Below, one piece after another: positions 1 to 25,496 of a stretch of DNA of 25,496 nucleotides. The position numbers were made by a program, and so were the translations under genes. Source of the DNA: a virus. Lineage: Duplodnaviria > Heunggongvirae > Uroviricota > Caudoviricetes. Under the pieces are notes generated by a model. That model made no database searches. It saw only the letters and a list, made by a program, of their open reading frames with translations, and was not told the origin of the DNA. The DNA lies in IMG/VR virus record IMGVR_UViG_2724679539_000001, positions 1 to 25,496 of that record; one strand, given 5' to 3'. Positions within the stretch are counted from its first letter, which is position 1. The number at the start of each line of letters is the position of its first letter.

Positions 1-458
1 TTTCTAACCTGTACGGTATGGTCACCGGGATGGCGGAAGATCTGCAGAGTCTGGTCGGTGGAACGGTGGTCCGGCGTAAGGTTTACGCCCGTTTTCTGGA
101 TGCGGTGAACTTCGTCAACGGAAACAGTGGCGCCGATCCGGAGCAGGAGGTGATCAGCCGCTGGCGCATTGAGCAGTGCAGCGAACTGAGCGCGGTGAGT
201 GCCTCTTTTGTACTGTCCACGCCGACGGAAACGGACGGTGCTGTTTTTCCGGGACGTATCATGCTGGCCAACACCTGCACCTGGACCTATCGCGGTGATG
301 AGTGCGGTTATCACGGTCCGGCAGTCGCGGATGAATATGACCAGCCAACGTCCGATATCACGAAGGATAAATGCAGCAAATGCCTGAGCGGTTGTAAGTT
401 CCGCAATAACGTCGGCAACTTTGGCGGCTTCCTTTCCATTAACAAACTTTCGCAGTAA
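1..458 (+). CDS. L: Tail tip protein L (lambda gpL-like), 5'-truncated by the window edge; reading frame begins at position 3
   Basis: Translation SNLYGMVTGMAEDLQSLVGG... to ...FLSINKLSQ matches the C-terminal ~150 aa of lambda L as recalled, including the Cys-rich region (CGYHG, CSKCLSGC). Gene order L-K-I-J follows. Confidence 0.88.
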   Translation, partial: SNLYGMVTGMAEDLQSLVGGTVVRRKVYARFLDAVNFVNGNSGADPEQEVISRWRIEQCSELSAVSASFVLSTPTETDGAVFPGRIMLANTCTWTYRGDECGYHGPAVADEYDQPTSDITKDKCSKCLSGCKFRNNVGNFGGFLSINKLSQ

Positions 459-5383: not shown

Positions 5384-5983
5384 ATGCGTAAATTATGTGC
5401 TGTTATTCTGTCCGCAGTAGTCTGGCTGGTTGCCGCTGGTACGCCAGCGAGCGCAGCAGAGCATCAGTCCACACTAAGCGCCGGGTATCTTCAGGCCCAT
5501 ACTGATATGCCAGGCAGTGATGACCTGAAGGGCATTAACGTGAAATACCGTTATGAATTTACGGACACGCTGGGGCTGGTGACGTCATTCAGTTATGCCA
5601 ATGCCAAAGATGAGCAAAAAACGCATTACAGCGATACCCGCTGGCATGAAGATTCCGTGCGTAACCGCTGGTTCAGCATGATGGCGGGGCCATCTGTACG
5701 CGTGAATGAATGGTTCAGTGCTTATGCGATGGCAGGTGTGGCTTACAGCCGTGTTTCGACGTTCTCCGGGGATTATCTCCGCGTAACTGACAACAAGGGG
5801 AAAACGCACGATGTGCTGACCGGAAGTGATGACGATCGCCACAGCAACACGTCTCTGGCGTGGGGAGCTGGCGTGCAGTTTAACCCGACCGAATCCGTGG
5901 CCATTGATATTGCTTATGAAGGCTCCGGCAGTGGCGACTGGCGCACTGACGGTTTCATCGTGGGTGTCGGTTATAAGTTCTGA
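5384..5983 (+). CDS. lom: Lom-like outer membrane protein (Ail/Lom/PagC beta-barrel family)
   Basis: 199-aa ORF with signal peptide MRKLCAVILSAVVWLVAAGTPASA and a C-terminal aromatic residue (…VGYKF) typical of OMP barrels. Closely resembles lambda Lom; sits directly after J as in lambda. Confidence 0.9.
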   Translation: MRKLCAVILSAVVWLVAAGTPASAAEHQSTLSAGYLQAHTDMPGSDDLKGINVKYRYEFTDTLGLVTSFSYANAKDEQKTHYSDTRWHEDSVRNRWFSMMAGPSVRVNEWFSAYAMAGVAYSRVSTFSGDYLRVTDNKGKTHDVLTGSDDDRHSNTSLAWGAGVQFNPTESVAIDIAYEGSGSGDWRTDGFIVGVGYKF

Positions 5984-10135: not shown

Positions 10136-11125
10136 TTAGTTATTTTTTACATCGGAAGAATTTCCAAACGCCTCCTCAAGAATAGATTCAATTTTACTCA
10201 TTAGGTGCGATGGTATTTTTCTGTTATCTAATTTTAATGTTGTGAAATTTTTCCCATATTTCGCCACAACACCGTCTCCATATTTCTTTTCCCTTTTCTC
10301 TCCATGTGAATTGTTTTTCTCAACAATAATGAAATCATGAAGAGCCTGTATTATTCTTTGCGCATCTAAACTTTCACCTGATTTTTTCATCCTCAGCAAC
10401 TGAGATGCAGCATTTTTCATGGCTGCTTCCTGTCCCTGATATGCTTTAAAAAGAGCGTCTCCTGCTCTGGCTGATAACTCACCAGGATGGTTAAATATTG
10501 CCAATATATCTTTAGGTAAACCGGCTGTATTAATACATCGGCTGATAATATTTCTATCCACGCCTTCGGCTTCAGCTAAAGATTTTACGTTACCGTCAAA
10601 TTCATGGAGCCTTCGCAGGTATCTTTTCCCCCTTTCATAGGCGCTGATAGGTCTATAGTCGTTGCCTATCTGCGATAACCATTGCATTTGTTCATCATCT
10701 AAATCGCCAATAAGAACACGATAATCGCATCCAGTTATAATGGCTGCTTTACGTCTTCGAGAACCATCAGCTACTTCAACAATACCTGACACTTTTCTTG
10801 CGAAAGCCGGATTTTGTTGCCCAGAAGTTAGAAAAGATGGAATTAAATCAGCTAGAGAAGATTCATTTAATAAATCTTGATCACGCTCATTACCTAGCCA
10901 TACCATTGTTGCCATTTCTACTTTATCTGCGGGGATCGTCTCTAACTTAAAGTTAACATTACGTCCGCATACTGGCAAAGTTATGCTATTACCGGTTAAT
11001 GAACTCAGTTGACGTTTTAAATCACCAACCATAGGTGATACCGGCTGATGTTCAGGTGCATGATGATTATTACTCATAATGCGATTAATATCCGGAGCAT
11101 TTTTTAGAAGAGAGCGTTGTTTCAT
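10136..11125 (-). CDS. sopB: Partition protein SopB (ParB family, type Ia)
   Basis: 329-aa ORF. N-terminal two-thirds resemble F-plasmid SopB (ITLPVCGR, WxGNERDQ, GQQ.PAF, DGSRRRKAA, NDYRP.SAYERG, FSHPGELSA-like motifs); the C-terminus is divergent. ATG overlaps the sopA stop. Confidence 0.9.
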   Translation of the reverse strand: MKQRSLLKNAPDINRIMSNNHHAPEHQPVSPMVGDLKRQLSSLTGNSITLPVCGRNVNFKLETIPADKVEMATMVWLGNERDQDLLNESSLADLIPSFLTSGQQNPAFARKVSGIVEVADGSRRRKAAIITGCDYRVLIGDLDDEQMQWLSQIGNDYRPISAYERGKRYLRRLHEFDGNVKSLAEAEGVDRNIISRCINTAGLPKDILAIFNHPGELSARAGDALFKAYQGQEAAMKNAASQLLRMKKSGESLDAQRIIQALHDFIIVEKNNSHGEKREKKYGDGVVAKYGKNFTTLKLDNRKIPSHLMSKIESILEEAFGNSSDVKNN

Positions 11126-12291
11126 TCTTCGTTCTCCCAGCGAGGTTTTATTAGATCATCAAAAATTTCTCGACAAACAGGGTCCCATATAGAGACGGCA
11201 TTTCTCCATGCATTAAGTGTTGAACGCTGGTTTGCCGCTTGTTCAAATACTGTTCGCATTTTTATCTGACCTTTACCTACTTCATCGGTAACGCGTACAA
11301 CCTGACGTAATACCATTGATCCCCATGTATTTCTTATTTGCTCTTCCATCCATCGTGATTGATTTCCTGTAGTGAGACTATATTTAGTCAGAAGCAAGCG
11401 AACGGTCGGCTCAAATCCGCCTAGGTCAACGCTTTCTAGGAGATCGAGAAGCATTGTGAAAAACTGTAGAACAGAGGCGTAATCAAATAATTCTGCAGGG
11501 GTAGCAACAACGATAACGTCAGCTGCGCAAACAACGTTAATGGTTCCTGTACCGAGGTTTGGAGCACTATCTATAACGATAACATCGTAGTTATCCCAAA
11601 CTGATTCTATAGCTGCGCGTAGCATCAGGTGAGGAGGGTGAGGCAATTTACCCTGAGCATGATATTGCATGAGATCTGTTTCTATACGGTGTAAAGCTAG
11701 GCAGCTAGGAATAATGTCCAGTCCAGGCCAGCATGTTGGTTTTATAGCATATTCAGCGTTATCGCGTTCGCCCAAGTAAAATGGCAGTAAAGTATCCTCG
11801 GCATGTATATGTAAATCAGGTACATAACCGTGATACATGGAGGCTGTTCCCTGAGGATCGTTACCTTCAACTAAAAGAACACGATGACCTTGTAATGCTA
11901 GCCATTGTGCCTGATGTACTGCAGACGATGTTTTATAAACTCCGCCTTTGTGTGACATAACAGCAAGCACAACTGGGTTTTTATCTTGTGGCCGTTGGTT
12001 TGGGTTGCCAAAAACAGCTCGCATACTATTGATTTGATCTATGGTATAACCGGCACGACGTTCAACTCTTCCTCTCATTTCAAAGTCAGGTGCAGGTAAA
12101 CGCCCGTTCTTCTCAGCATCTCTTATTGCTTGAGGAGTTACACCAATTAAATCTGCTACTTCAGTTATCCCCCATCTACGCGTGATACGCCGAGCTTCAG
12201 GACTATCATCACCGAATTGAGCTATAGCAATTGCTTGGGTCATTTCTTGACCGCGCGTAACACAATCTTGTAATAACTTTTTCAAAGACAT
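11122..12291 (-). CDS. sopA: Partition ATPase SopA (ParA family, type Ia with N-terminal HTH extension)
   Basis: 389-aa ORF with deviant Walker A KGGVYKTS and a long N-terminal extension. High similarity to F/N15 SopA as recalled (LLVEGNDPQGTASMYHG, IDSAPNLG, KGQIRMRTVFEQA-like blocks). GGAG RBS. Confidence 0.95.
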   Translation of the reverse strand: MSLKKLLQDCVTRGQEMTQAIAIAQFGDDSPEARRITRRWGITEVADLIGVTPQAIRDAEKNGRLPAPDFEMRGRVERRAGYTIDQINSMRAVFGNPNQRPQDKNPVVLAVMSHKGGVYKTSSAVHQAQWLALQGHRVLLVEGNDPQGTASMYHGYVPDLHIHAEDTLLPFYLGERDNAEYAIKPTCWPGLDIIPSCLALHRIETDLMQYHAQGKLPHPPHLMLRAAIESVWDNYDVIVIDSAPNLGTGTINVVCAADVIVVATPAELFDYASVLQFFTMLLDLLESVDLGGFEPTVRLLLTKYSLTTGNQSRWMEEQIRNTWGSMVLRQVVRVTDEVGKGQIKMRTVFEQAANQRSTLNAWRNAVSIWDPVCREIFDDLIKPRWENEE

Positions 12292-12312: not shown

Positions 12313-12390
12313 CTTTGCTTAATAATTATTGCTTTGCATATTTCTAGCAAATTGACATAGAAAAAGCAAAGTAAAACAAAAAAGGCAAAG
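12313..12390 (-). promoter_or_regulatory. Putative sopAB promoter/operator region with four CTTTGC/GCAAAG hexamers
   Basis: Hexamers at 12313-12318, 12332-12337, 12366-12371 and 12385-12390, immediately upstream of sopA. F SopA is known to autoregulate via CTTTGC repeats overlapping its promoter. Exact -35/-10 not resolved. Confidence 0.45.
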
Positions 12391-12570
12391 ACGAAGATTT
12401 GAACAAAATCATCTTTTGTTTTATCCCTTAAATGCAAAAAAAAACAACGGCAAGATCATAACAAATTGATAATAAAGGATTTTTTAAAAGAAAGGAAATC
12501 GTATAAAACTAGTGAAACATGATGAAAATCATCAATGAGATACGTTTCCTCTATTTATTCTCCTAATCCT

Positions 12571-12720
12571 CACCAACAAAAGAACACAATCAAAGATCGT
12601 AAAACAACAATAATAATTCACACAAAATAAAGAACACAAATACAGAAAACAACAACACAATAAAAACAAGAGAACACAAGCTATAAATATTACACCAATA
12701 GAGAACACTAATCAAGAACA
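12571..12720. repeat. Array of AGAACACA(A) direct repeats flanking the telomere palindrome (left arm)
   Basis: AGAACACAAT at 12581-12590, AGAACACAAA at 12631-12640, AACAACACAA at 12651-12660, AGAACACAAG at 12671-12680, GAGAACACTA at 12701-12710, and GAACA at 12716-12720 abutting the palindrome. Confidence 0.6.
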
Positions 12721-12776
12721 TATCAGCACATAATTTCCCATTATACGCGCGTATAATGGGAAATTATGTGCTGATA
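12721..12776. other. 56-bp perfect palindrome at the symmetry axis; putative protelomerase target / hairpin telomere (telRL/telO-like)
   Basis: Sequence TATCAGCACATAATTTCCCATTATACGCGCGTATAATGGGAAATTATGTGCTGATA. The central 22 bp match the N15 telO core as I recall it; the flanking arms differ from N15 at a few positions. Sits immediately beyond sopA, as telL does in N15. Confidence 0.75.
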
Positions 12777-12926
12777 TGTTCTTGATTAGTGTTCTCTATT
12801 GGTGTAATATTTATAGCTTGTGTTCTCTTGTTTTTATTGTGTTGTTGTTTTCTGTATTTGTGTTCTTTATTTTGTGTGAATTATTATTGTTGTTTTACGA
12901 TCTTTGATTGTGTTCTTTTGTTGGTG
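12777..12926. repeat. Mirror copy of the AGAACACA repeat array (right arm, opposite orientation)
   Basis: Reverse complement of 12571-12720 (TGTGTTCT motifs). Confidence 0.6.
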
Positions 12927-13106
12927 AGGATTAGGAGAATAAATAGAGGAAACGTATCTCATTGATGATTTTCATCATGTTTCACTAGTTTTATACGATT
13001 TCCTTTCTTTTAAAAAATCCTTTATTATCAATTTGTTATGATCTTGCCGTTGTTTTTTTTTGCATTTAAGGGATAAAACAAAAGATGATTTTGTTCAAAT
13101 CTTCGT

Positions 13107-13184
13107 CTTTGCCTTTTTTGTTTTACTTTGCTTTTTCTATGTCAATTTGCTAGAAATATGCAAAGCAATAATTATTAAGCAAAG
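13107..13184 (+). promoter_or_regulatory. Putative sopAB promoter/operator region (mirror copy)
   Basis: Mirror of 12313-12390; CTTTGC/GCAAAG hexamers upstream of the second sopA copy. Confidence 0.45.
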
Positions 13185-13205
13185 TTATAAGCTGGAGATG
13201 ACAGT

Positions 13206-14375
13206 ATGTCTTTGAAAAAGTTATTACAAGATTGTGTTACGCGCGGTCAAGAAATGACCCAAGCAATTGCTATAGCTCAATTCGGTGATGATAGTCCTGA
13301 AGCTCGGCGTATCACGCGTAGATGGGGGATAACTGAAGTAGCAGATTTAATTGGTGTAACTCCTCAAGCAATAAGAGATGCTGAGAAGAACGGGCGTTTA
13401 CCTGCACCTGACTTTGAAATGAGAGGAAGAGTTGAACGTCGTGCCGGTTATACCATAGATCAAATCAATAGTATGCGAGCTGTTTTTGGCAACCCAAACC
13501 AACGGCCACAAGATAAAAACCCAGTTGTGCTTGCTGTTATGTCACACAAAGGCGGAGTTTATAAAACATCGTCTGCAGTACATCAGGCACAATGGCTAGC
13601 ATTACAAGGTCATCGTGTTCTTTTAGTTGAAGGTAACGATCCTCAGGGAACAGCCTCCATGTATCACGGTTATGTACCTGATTTACATATACATGCCGAG
13701 GATACTTTACTGCCATTTTACTTGGGCGAACGCGATAACGCTGAATATGCTATAAAACCAACATGCTGGCCTGGACTGGACATTATTCCTAGCTGCCTAG
13801 CTTTACACCGTATAGAAACAGATCTCATGCAATATCATGCTCAGGGTAAATTGCCTCACCCTCCTCACCTGATGCTACGCGCAGCTATAGAATCAGTTTG
13901 GGATAACTACGATGTTATCGTTATAGATAGTGCTCCAAACCTCGGTACAGGAACCATTAACGTTGTTTGCGCAGCTGACGTTATCGTTGTTGCTACCCCT
14001 GCAGAATTATTTGATTACGCCTCTGTTCTACAGTTTTTCACAATGCTTCTCGATCTCCTAGAAAGCGTTGACCTAGGCGGATTTGAGCCGACCGTTCGCT
14101 TGCTTCTGACTAAATATAGTCTCACTACAGGAAATCAATCACGATGGATGGAAGAGCAAATAAGAAATACATGGGGATCAATGGTATTACGTCAGGTTGT
14201 ACGCGTTACCGATGAAGTAGGTAAAGGTCAGATAAAAATGCGAACAGTATTTGAACAAGCGGCAAACCAGCGTTCAACACTTAATGCATGGAGAAATGCC
14301 GTCTCTATATGGGACCCTGTTTGTCGAGAAATTTTTGATGATCTAATAAAACCTCGCTGGGAGAACGAAGAATGA
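13206..14375 (+). CDS. sopA: Partition ATPase SopA (mirror copy)
   Basis: Protein identical to the 11122-12291 ORF. Confidence 0.95.
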   Translation: MSLKKLLQDCVTRGQEMTQAIAIAQFGDDSPEARRITRRWGITEVADLIGVTPQAIRDAEKNGRLPAPDFEMRGRVERRAGYTIDQINSMRAVFGNPNQRPQDKNPVVLAVMSHKGGVYKTSSAVHQAQWLALQGHRVLLVEGNDPQGTASMYHGYVPDLHIHAEDTLLPFYLGERDNAEYAIKPTCWPGLDIIPSCLALHRIETDLMQYHAQGKLPHPPHLMLRAAIESVWDNYDVIVIDSAPNLGTGTINVVCAADVIVVATPAELFDYASVLQFFTMLLDLLESVDLGGFEPTVRLLLTKYSLTTGNQSRWMEEQIRNTWGSMVLRQVVRVTDEVGKGQIKMRTVFEQAANQRSTLNAWRNAVSIWDPVCREIFDDLIKPRWENEE

Positions 14376-15361
14376 AACAACGCTCTCTTCTAAAAAATGC
14401 TCCGGATATTAATCGCATTATGAGTAATAATCATCATGCACCTGAACATCAGCCGGTATCACCTATGGTTGGTGATTTAAAACGTCAACTGAGTTCATTA
14501 ACCGGTAATAGCATAACTTTGCCAGTATGCGGACGTAATGTTAACTTTAAGTTAGAGACGATCCCCGCAGATAAAGTAGAAATGGCAACAATGGTATGGC
14601 TAGGTAATGAGCGTGATCAAGATTTATTAAATGAATCTTCTCTAGCTGATTTAATTCCATCTTTTCTAACTTCTGGGCAACAAAATCCGGCTTTCGCAAG
14701 AAAAGTGTCAGGTATTGTTGAAGTAGCTGATGGTTCTCGAAGACGTAAAGCAGCCATTATAACTGGATGCGATTATCGTGTTCTTATTGGCGATTTAGAT
14801 GATGAACAAATGCAATGGTTATCGCAGATAGGCAACGACTATAGACCTATCAGCGCCTATGAAAGGGGGAAAAGATACCTGCGAAGGCTCCATGAATTTG
14901 ACGGTAACGTAAAATCTTTAGCTGAAGCCGAAGGCGTGGATAGAAATATTATCAGCCGATGTATTAATACAGCCGGTTTACCTAAAGATATATTGGCAAT
15001 ATTTAACCATCCTGGTGAGTTATCAGCCAGAGCAGGAGACGCTCTTTTTAAAGCATATCAGGGACAGGAAGCAGCCATGAAAAATGCTGCATCTCAGTTG
15101 CTGAGGATGAAAAAATCAGGTGAAAGTTTAGATGCGCAAAGAATAATACAGGCTCTTCATGATTTCATTATTGTTGAGAAAAACAATTCACATGGAGAGA
15201 AAAGGGAAAAGAAATATGGAGACGGTGTTGTGGCGAAATATGGGAAAAATTTCACAACATTAAAATTAGATAACAGAAAAATACCATCGCACCTAATGAG
15301 TAAAATTGAATCTATTCTTGAGGAGGCGTTTGGAAATTCTTCCGATGTAAAAAATAACTAA
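14372..15361 (+). CDS. sopB: Partition protein SopB (mirror copy)
   Basis: Protein identical to the 10136-11125 ORF. Confidence 0.9.
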   Translation: MKQRSLLKNAPDINRIMSNNHHAPEHQPVSPMVGDLKRQLSSLTGNSITLPVCGRNVNFKLETIPADKVEMATMVWLGNERDQDLLNESSLADLIPSFLTSGQQNPAFARKVSGIVEVADGSRRRKAAIITGCDYRVLIGDLDDEQMQWLSQIGNDYRPISAYERGKRYLRRLHEFDGNVKSLAEAEGVDRNIISRCINTAGLPKDILAIFNHPGELSARAGDALFKAYQGQEAAMKNAASQLLRMKKSGESLDAQRIIQALHDFIIVEKNNSHGEKREKKYGDGVVAKYGKNFTTLKLDNRKIPSHLMSKIESILEEAFGNSSDVKNN

Positions 15362-19513: not shown

Positions 19514-20113
19514 TCAGAACTTATAACCGACACCCACGATGAAACCGTCAGTGCGCCAGTCGCCACTGCCGGAGCCTTCATAAGCAATATCAATGGCCAC
19601 GGATTCGGTCGGGTTAAACTGCACGCCAGCTCCCCACGCCAGAGACGTGTTGCTGTGGCGATCGTCATCACTTCCGGTCAGCACATCGTGCGTTTTCCCC
19701 TTGTTGTCAGTTACGCGGAGATAATCCCCGGAGAACGTCGAAACACGGCTGTAAGCCACACCTGCCATCGCATAAGCACTGAACCATTCATTCACGCGTA
19801 CAGATGGCCCCGCCATCATGCTGAACCAGCGGTTACGCACGGAATCTTCATGCCAGCGGGTATCGCTGTAATGCGTTTTTTGCTCATCTTTGGCATTGGC
19901 ATAACTGAATGACGTCACCAGCCCCAGCGTGTCCGTAAATTCATAACGGTATTTCACGTTAATGCCCTTCAGGTCATCACTGCCTGGCATATCAGTATGG
20001 GCCTGAAGATACCCGGCGCTTAGTGTGGACTGATGCTCTGCTGCGCTCGCTGGCGTACCAGCGGCAACCAGCCAGACTACTGCGGACAGAATAACAGCAC
20101 ATAATTTACGCAT
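19514..20113 (-). CDS. lom: Lom-like outer membrane protein (mirror copy)
   Basis: Protein identical to the 5384-5983 ORF. Confidence 0.9.
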   Translation of the reverse strand: MRKLCAVILSAVVWLVAAGTPASAAEHQSTLSAGYLQAHTDMPGSDDLKGINVKYRYEFTDTLGLVTSFSYANAKDEQKTHYSDTRWHEDSVRNRWFSMMAGPSVRVNEWFSAYAMAGVAYSRVSTFSGDYLRVTDNKGKTHDVLTGSDDDRHSNTSLAWGAGVQFNPTESVAIDIAYEGSGSGDWRTDGFIVGVGYKF

Positions 20114-25038: not shown

Positions 25039-25496
25039 TTACTGCGAAAGTTTGTTAATGGAAAGGAAGCCGCCAAAGTTGCCGACGTTATTGCGGAACT
25101 TACAACCGCTCAGGCATTTGCTGCATTTATCCTTCGTGATATCGGACGTTGGCTGGTCATATTCATCCGCGACTGCCGGACCGTGATAACCGCACTCATC
25201 ACCGCGATAGGTCCAGGTGCAGGTGTTGGCCAGCATGATACGTCCCGGAAAAACAGCACCGTCCGTTTCCGTCGGCGTGGACAGTACAAAAGAGGCACTC
25301 ACCGCGCTCAGTTCGCTGCACTGCTCAATGCGCCAGCGGCTGATCACCTCCTGCTCCGGATCGGCGCCACTGTTTCCGTTGACGAAGTTCACCGCATCCA
25401 GAAAACGGGCGTAAACCTTACGCCGGACCACCGTTCCACCGACCAGACTCTGCAGATCTTCCGCCATCCCGGTGACCATAATGTATAAGTGTGTAA
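25039..25496 (-). CDS. L: Tail tip protein L, 5'-truncated by the window edge (mirror copy); the last 17 nt diverge from the left-end copy
   Basis: 25039-25479 encodes a protein identical to 18-458. The codons in 25480-25494 would read THLYI instead of the lambda-like SNLYG. Confidence 0.8.
   Translation of the reverse strand, partial: THLYIMVTGMAEDLQSLVGGTVVRRKVYARFLDAVNFVNGNSGADPEQEVISRWRIEQCSELSAVSASFVLSTPTETDGAVFPGRIMLANTCTWTYRGDECGYHGPAVADEYDQPTSDITKDKCSKCLSGCKFRNNVGNFGGFLSINKLSQ

Follow-up and report, generated by a model that had tools for sequence, protein, structure and literature searches.

Introduction

The best described counterpart of the telomere treated here is that of phage N15, in which the natural target of the protelomerase TelN is apparently ~310 bp, as against the 56-bp telRL (PMC12624138). 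The L1, L2, R1 and R2 repeats of this region, tos, have been described as degenerate copies of the L3/R3 distal box of telRL, and CTD1, one of the C-terminal domains (CTDs) of TelN, has been proposed to bind the flanking repeats and thereby to build a protective assembly (PMC12624138). TelN remains on the hairpins and shields them from Mre11-Rad50 (SbcCD); TelN without its CTDs protects only if induced, whereas the wild-type protein protects uninduced (PMC12624138). The tos primers of N15 vectors bracket exactly the 0.4 kb that bears the repeats (PMC2847241). Here, we analyze a related array, built of AGAACACAA and its variants, in the 25,496-nt stretch of tailed-phage DNA held as IMG/VR record IMGVR_UViG_2724679539_000001 (hereafter the window, i.e. 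the whole stretch), and weigh which protein would bind it.

Related enzymes and telomeres offer further hints. Monomers of TelK, the protelomerase of phiKO2, diffuse on DNA until they halt at their target, and its dimers condense DNA. The flanking repeat of PY54-type telomeres has been suggested to aid processing in vivo. How hairpin telomeres are protected in linear prophages is an active question, and the block of Mre11-Rad50 by TelN was shown only recently.

An array of repeats abuts the telomere half-site

We found five copies of the repeat beside the telomere (Table 1), all directed at the centre of the window, with start-to-start spacings of 50, 40, 31 and 13 and an outward consensus of TT(R)TGTTCT; the innermost copy abuts the distal box of the half-site. 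These positions bear out the initial annotation, which had described AGAACACAA-like copies at spacings of 50, 40 and 31 with the last one against the telomere. From the sequence comparisons given below, we consider it probable that the repeats are accessory protelomerase boxes, which would extend the occupancy of TelN from the 28-bp telR half-site over ~170 bp of sop-side DNA.

The 8-mer AGAACACA has no other occurrence across the 12.7-kb arm. Two weak, overlapping copies with one mismatch (AGAAAACAA and ACAACACAA) are doubtful members of the array because they are not kept as TGTTCY sites in relatives. As the initial annotation had said, the region is AT-rich (70% A+T at positions 12560-12748, compared with 50.5% for the whole window), and the left-arm top strand of the repeat stretch is of low complexity and strongly skewed (A 53%, G 7%). 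The decrease in spacing toward the telomere, to which the initial annotation had drawn attention, is no meaningful feature: the series in N15 is 10, 32, 42, 13 and 35, and that of some close relatives (type B, below) differs again. Helical phasing of the sites was also considered and rejected (Rayleigh R of 0.13-0.61 at a 10.5-bp period, Monte-Carlo p of 0.10-0.93, not significant). A search with Rfam at a permissive threshold returned two chance-level matches only, far under the gathering scores.

Table 1. Coordinates of the repeats, the telomere and the partition genes in the window. Offsets are counted from the hairpin apex.
Feature	Position	Strand	Description
Copy 5 (outermost)	12581-12589	+	AGAACACAA; mirror 12908-12916, outward TTGTGTTCT; apex offset +162
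Copy 4	12631-12639	+	AGAACACAA; mirror 12858-12866; offset +112
Copy 3	12671-12679	+	AGAACACAA; mirror 12818-12826; offset +72
Copy 2	12702-12710	+	AGAACACTA; mirror 12787-12795; offset +41
Copy 1	12715-12723	+	AGAACATAT; mirror 12774-12782; offset +28; abuts telR half-site
Weak overlapping one-mismatch copies	12644-12660	+	AGAAAACAA, ACAACACAA; mirror 12837-12853; membership doubtful
Mirror of five-copy array	12774-12916	+	outward TGTTCT or TTGTGTTCT at 12774, 12787, 12818, 12858, 12908; same DNA as 12581-12723
telRR junction	12721-12776	.	two telR half-sites head to head; hairpin apex in the real molecule at 12748|12749
telO core	12738-12759	.	within the telRR junction
Distal boxes	12721-12734 and 12763-12776	.	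TATCAGCACATAAT and ATTATGTGCTGATA; apex offset +14 to +27
sopA	13206-14375	+	389 aa; AAA_31/CbiA; annotated ParA
sopB	14372-15361	+	329 aa; SoPB_HTH; annotated ParB
SopA (ParA) operator	13107-13184	+	in sop promoter; mirror 12313-12390

The window is a folded-back telomere end of PhiR46_1

Over 2.65 kb, the arm of the window matches one end (telR) of Escherichia phage PhiR46_1 (host E. coli ECOR13; PV340565.1) at 100%, a value that blastn has rounded and that includes at least one single-nucleotide polymorphism. PhiR46_1 is a linear plasmid-prophage of the N15 kind, and the window is its sop-side (telR) end. Elements of the PhiR46_1 type are rare (6 of 5,426 complete E. coli genomes). Both telL and telR are annotated in PV340565.1, and its protelomerase TelN (633 aa) is encoded beside telL, outside the window, starts 191 nt from the apex, and has all four TelK/ResT Pfam domains (TelK_N, muzzle, catalytic and stirrup).

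We found that, apart from 16 nt at either extremity, the window is its own reverse complement; its centre of symmetry is 12748|12749, and the list of open reading frames is mirror-symmetric too. Since the window is a perfect palindrome, its two arms are a single arm seen twice, and since it folds back, a separate 56-bp palindrome cannot be delimited within it. Hence, two parts of the initial annotation fall away: the symmetry of repeats on each arm arises from the fold-back of the contig, and the 56-bp palindrome has no boundary in the window. In the real molecule, the joined telL and telR flanks of PhiR46_1 give a perfect palindrome of 54 bp (half-length 27), and the same length was found for two IMG/VR loci with intact telRL (L032 and L040). 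The core of the telomere, TACGCGCGTA at 12744-12753, is common to N15, phiKO2 and PY54.

The real arms of PhiR46_1 are unlike. The sop arm carries the five TGTTCT sites at +28, +41, +72, +112 and +162. The telN arm carries, going outward, two inverted AGAACA copies (+31, +44) followed by same-orientation TGTTCC, TGTGTT and TGTGTTACGATA at ~+58, +70, +96 and +151.

Other records fold back in the same manner. Scans with a telO pattern returned 38 loci in IMG/VR and 2 loci in genome contigs. In 8 of the 38 IMG/VR loci the perfect palindrome continues past telRL, for at least 600 nt in five and for 143-328 nt or up to the end of the stored locus in the other three. The RefSeq 'plasmid' NZ_CP101203.1 (14,498 bp) matches the telR flank at two places, with the match ending at exactly half its length, and looks like the same kind of fold-back as the window; the strain also carries the 46-kb linear plasmid. 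Two origins both fit: read-through of a covalently closed hairpin during assembly, and capture of the telRR junction after replication, a genuine intermediate according to the N15 model (PMC12624138). Contigs and RefSeq 'plasmids' that are perfectly palindromic about telO are fold-backs of a single telomere end and not symmetric loci. At the extreme ends of the window (1-16 versus 25481-25496), 9 of 16 positions still agree, as if the assembly had met two allelic variants.

Comparison with N15, phiKO2 and PY54

The repeats of the window appear to correspond to L1/L2/R1/R2 of the ~310-bp N15 tos, matched here by published description. The two systems share the place of the array between telRL and sopA, the core TGTTCY/TTGTGTTCT, the orientation, the abutting copy at +28, the relation to the L3/R3 distal box, and a sister array on the telN side, whose offsets are nearly identical in N15 and PhiR46_1 (-157, -100/-102, -75/-78, -50 and -37). 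The array also lies within ~150-170 bp of a protelomerase target palindrome with the TACGCGCGTA core, its sites spanning apex offsets +28 to +170. The resemblance to the accessory repeats of N15 noted by the initial annotation is therefore borne out, with the same motif on the homologous arm, the shared +28 copy and the telN-side offsets.

The outer sop-side offsets differ, however (+41/+72/+112/+162 in the window and +60/+102/+115/+150 in N15). On its sop arm, N15 has TGTTCC at +28 and +60, TGTGTTCT at +100, TGTTCT at +115 and +150, and TGTGTT at +161. Its flank is not alignable to that of the window: blastn in 'distant' mode fails over the first 358 nt, and the match starts at query position 359. 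The half-site distal box (+14 to +27) reads ATTATGTGCTGATA in the window phage and ATTGTGTGCTGATA in N15, and the former has A where the repeats of the window and the N15 box show G (TTATGTGCT vs TTGTGTTCT/TTGTGTGCT).

The comparison with the flanks of N15 and phiKO2 that the initial annotation had suggested was run, and both phages bear arrays of degenerate distal-box copies. In phiKO2 these lie on both arms, and ATTGTGTTATGATA agrees with the R3 box ATTGTGTGCTGATA at 12 of 14 positions (by eye). The phiKO2 copies differ from those of the window in keeping the apex-distal half of the box (…TATGATA), whereas the window copies keep the apex-proximal half (TTGTGTTCT). In PY54 and vB_YenS_P840, the outer box of the telomere palindrome (pal) is likewise repeated in the flanks (AATGGGTTAC vs box AATAGGTTAC), but the motif is unrelated to that of the window. 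As a functional analogy only, yeast Rap1 arrays and shelterin also place tandem sites for an end-protection protein beside the chromosome end (PMC12624138); there is no homology, and here the enzyme that makes the end would be the binder, with sites that are few and irregularly spaced.

Repeat sites outconserve their spacers

We aligned the unique sop-side arms of the PhiR46 group (8 arms) and the N15 group (10 arms) and compared the site columns with the rest of the flank by permutation. Mean pairwise identity was 0.940 in site columns and 0.770 in the remainder for the PhiR46 group (p = 5e-4), and 0.867 and 0.594, respectively, for the N15 group (p = 1e-4). TGTTCY sites were found at +28, +41, +112 and +162 in the PhiR46 group, and at +28, +60, +102, +115 and +150 in the N15 group (N15, Enterobacter phage MStein-2023a and 8 further arms). 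TGTTCY at +28 is invariant, being present in 8/8 and 10/10 arms, respectively.

Within the PhiR46 group, the positions of copies 4 and 5 are kept in all eight unique arms (+112/113 and +162/163) and copy 2 is present in seven. Copy 3 (+72) is restricted to arms of type A, that of the window (3/8); in relatives of type B the middle sites are rearranged, with +59 and +149 standing in place of +72. This difference indicates turnover of sites. Kept sites, diverged spacers and occasional turnover together have the look of a putative binding-site array under selection.

The type-B relatives (IMG/VR L010, L022, L023, L038, L039 and L046) encode TelN proteins 97-99% identical to that of PhiR46_1. Their sop-side distal box has diverged at offsets +21 to +27, with ATTATGTTTCGTTA replacing ATTATGTGCTGATA, so that the type-B telRL is palindromic only to a half-length of 21 or 12.

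Each lineage examined repeats its own distal box

The outward repeat TTGTGTTCT shares 7/9 positions with TTATGTGCT, the distal box of this phage, and 8/9 with the N15 R3 core TTGTGTGCT. All five sop-arm copies are oriented as the box of the adjacent half-site; an exception to this orientation is the telN arm of PhiR46_1, where the two proximal AGAACA copies are inverted.

We scanned the 14-nt distal box of each lineage against the flanks of all lineages at a threshold of at least 10/14, and also scanned 10-mers at 8/10. Matches of a box to its own flanks at 10/14 or better, given as same-orientation/inverted, numbered 7/0 for N15, 5/0 for PhiR46_1, 8/0 for phiKO2 and 6/1 for PY54. In the 8/10 scan, the PY54 box (AATAGGTTAC) had 6 own-flank copies and the box of IMG/VR locus L045 (ATGTGGTGACGATA) had 2, numbers that none of 2000 shuffles reached. 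Across lineages, the PY54 and L045 boxes had none or one match in N15-type flanks, and N15-type boxes had 0 matches in the L045 flank and at most 2 in the PY54 flanks.

In marine telomere phages, too, the outer portion of the half-site of telRL recurs in 3-6 copies between parA and tel, each phage having an unrelated half-site of its own. In phiHAP-1 (L048) the repeat is GGGCYA..TATGTATG (6 copies, one within the half-site), in VP882 (L049) it is GGGCAAGGTATGTATGTA (4 copies), and Vibrio phage K242 (L050) has GTTAYCC..TGCACAC repeats. Because own-box repetition recurs across these lineages, binding by the protelomerase would explain them all most simply; given such different hosts, a host factor is unlikely. 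Hence, the suggestion of the initial annotation that the repeats are candidate protelomerase sites gains support from the likeness to the box, the orientation and the between-clade co-variation.

Every phage protelomerase telomere examined (the N15, PhiR46, phiKO2, PY54, L045, phiHAP-1, VP882 and K242 types) is flanked by a lineage-specific and fast-evolving array of its own box. A broader possibility, which we advance tentatively and hold to be less likely than the accessory-box reading itself, is that such arrays could be a conserved and necessary part of a cap made of several protelomerases, comparable in bacteria to the telomere caps built on tandem sites. If this is true, the cap would set a threshold concentration of TelN for end protection and could couple the expression of telN and sop to telomere occupancy. 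The arrays would then do more than is suggested by the in vitro work with the 56-bp site, in which they come out as dispensable decoration. The PhiR46_1 repeats add to the already known N15-type accessory repeats and are of modest interest singly; their interest is greater as part of a cross-lineage rule.

The L045 locus (IMGVR_UViG_3300036778_000064) encodes a TelN that is 58% identical and shares the telO core. Its distal box is different, GGTGACGATA, and recurs as GGTTACGATA, GGTTACTAT and TGTTACGAT in the 177 nt upstream of the tel gene.

Evidence against protelomerase binding

Several results weigh against the reading of the repeats as protelomerase boxes. Occupancy of the N15 repeats by the protelomerase has been rated just 'conceivable', and both C-terminal domains of TelN, CTD1 included, are dispensable for protection under induction (PMC12624138). 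Both in vitro and in vivo, the 56-bp telRL has been reported to suffice for processing by itself, and the flanking inverted repeat of the PY54 type is dispensable for processing in P840. Since telRL is sufficient and the flanking repeats are dispensable, any role of the repeats would be auxiliary. Within the window's own clade, the 10-mer from the PhiR46_1 box had 1 match at 8/10 (p = 0.46), and that from the N15 box had 6. As the PhiR46_1 repeats fit the N15 box better than their own, we rejected fine-scale co-variation within the N15/PhiR46/KO2 clade; as read from these scans, co-variation of box and repeat holds only between clades. In the type-B relatives, moreover, the sop-side distal box has diverged (TGTTTCGTTA) yet the TGTTCT repeats are kept.

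The statistics of the motif itself also count here. The initial annotation had suggested weighing its frequency against the local A/C-rich composition, and the named motif is in excess: AGAACA occurs 5 times against 0.71 expected (p≈1e-4, local dinucleotide shuffles). A test for any k-mer reaching that count in the A-rich stretch was only marginal, however (p = 0.03-0.18). Hence, the significance of the array rests on the comparative evidence.

These figures bear on a rival explanation, that the repeats are non-functional relics, i.e. decaying copies produced by duplication or slippage of the half-site or by biased composition near a hairpin end. The low complexity and skew of the stretch, the marginal any-k-mer test, the turnover of the middle sites between close relatives (+72 vs +59) and the dispensability of flanking repeats for processing in several assays all fit relics. 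We nevertheless judge relics unlikely, since the site columns outconserve the intervening sequence in two independent groups, the offsets are kept between N15 and PhiR46_1 despite flanks that blastn does not align, and at least six lineages show this architecture, with motifs that are unrelated.

A proposed role for TelN on the repeats

If the repeats are protelomerase boxes, extra TelN monomers would dock on them, possibly via the stirrup/CTD1 domain, and would raise the local concentration of the enzyme at the telomere. The hairpin would thereby be kept capped against SbcCD even at low TelN, and the replicated telRR junction, which is the sequence in the window, would be resolved promptly. 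More speculatively, occupancy by TelN may damp outward transcription toward sopAB and, on the other arm, toward telN, an idea suggested by the location of the two arrays, upstream of sopAB and of telN, respectively.

This locus and its relatives make a clean comparative argument that the flanking repeats may be under selection and read by the protelomerase. They also offer natural variants for testing: the type-A and type-B arms, the +59/+72 turnover and the diverged distal box.

Transcription toward sopAB

The position of the arrays also fits another explanation, that the repeats are operator or promoter elements for a regulator other than TelN, of the host or the phage, that controls transcription toward sopAB, with the likeness to the box incidental or ancestral. 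Relative to sopA, the array is 290-430 bp upstream; the 190 bp ahead of telN are taken up by the sister array. By eye, an outward sigma-70-like pair (TTGATT, 17 nt, TAATAT) is seen at 12782-12810 (offsets +33 to +61), between and just past copies 1 and 2. Its -35 is invariant in 8/8 PhiR46-group arms, but the pair scores below the threshold of the promoter scan given next, and we regard it only as a candidate telomere-proximal sop promoter.

A regulator of this kind is nonetheless improbable. The own-box rule across lineages is hard to square with a host factor common to E. coli, Yersinia, Halomonas and Vibrio, the orientation of the repeats is tied to the adjacent half-site, and four of the eight related arms have TAATGT as the putative -10. 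A scan of 12749-13300 for consensus promoters and terminators found none scoring at least 9/12, a result that also leaves the transcriptional part of the proposed TelN role unsupported; the scan is uninformative in that the promoter with the SopA operator upstream of sopA also went unreported. A second sop promoter in the N15 tos, repressed by TelN, is said to have been described by Dorokhov, Lane and Ravin in 2003, which we treat as a lead only.

Partition genes and other elements of the arm

The sopAB genes (13206-15361; mirror 10136-12291, minus strand) are transcribed away from the telomere, and past them the arm carries tail-fibre, lom and J-like tail genes. The SopA operator consists of CTTTGC at 13107-13112 and 13126-13131, aTTTGC at 13145-13150, and inverted GCAAAG at 13160-13165 and 13179-13184, with 13-bp intervals and 28-bp spacers as in plasmid F and N15. 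The CTTTGC motif and the spacing rule have been described for the partition promoters of F, N15 and phiKO2 (PMC8465637). Identity of the AGAACACAA array with this operator was rejected, as the CTTTGC operator lies ~190 bp from the outermost repeat.

The stretch is AT-rich, bears direct repeats and adjoins sopAB, and so might be thought to hold a replication origin near the telomere, as iterons or an unwinding element, or else centromere sites for SopB; the initial annotation had named both replication initiation and SopB among the possible functions. We consider an origin or a centromere very unlikely, far more so than either relics or an operator. The genes of the arm are those for tail proteins, lom and sopAB, with no replication gene among them, and N15 replicates bidirectionally from an internal ori, according to the title of Ravin et al. 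2003 (NAR 31:6552). The core of F-type sopC is absent from the window at up to 3 mismatches, the arm has no short-spaced inverted repeats of at least 12 nt, the motif is asymmetric, unlike ParB boxes, and the operator of SopA sits elsewhere. Neither suggestion found support.

A 51-aa hypothetical coding sequence (XSB42802.1 in PV340565.1; window 13060-13215) overlaps the SopA operator and the start of sopA; this annotation is probably spurious. A block of high conservation in the PhiR46 group lies between the array and the sop promoter and contains a near-perfect small palindrome, TGATGA-TTT-TCATCA, at 12963-12978 (mirror 12519-12534). It recurs in degenerate form as GATGATTTTGTTCA 120 nt beyond, at 13084-13097. 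The palindrome is a possible candidate operator for a dimeric protein; N15 has a different element, ATCAA-N-TTGAT, at a similar place. Farther out on the arm, a gene for an outer-membrane protein of the Ail/Lom family (19514-20113; mirror 5384-5983) is complete (199 aa, Pfam E=2e-127), and this lom-type gene lies amid tail genes, as does lom of lambda.

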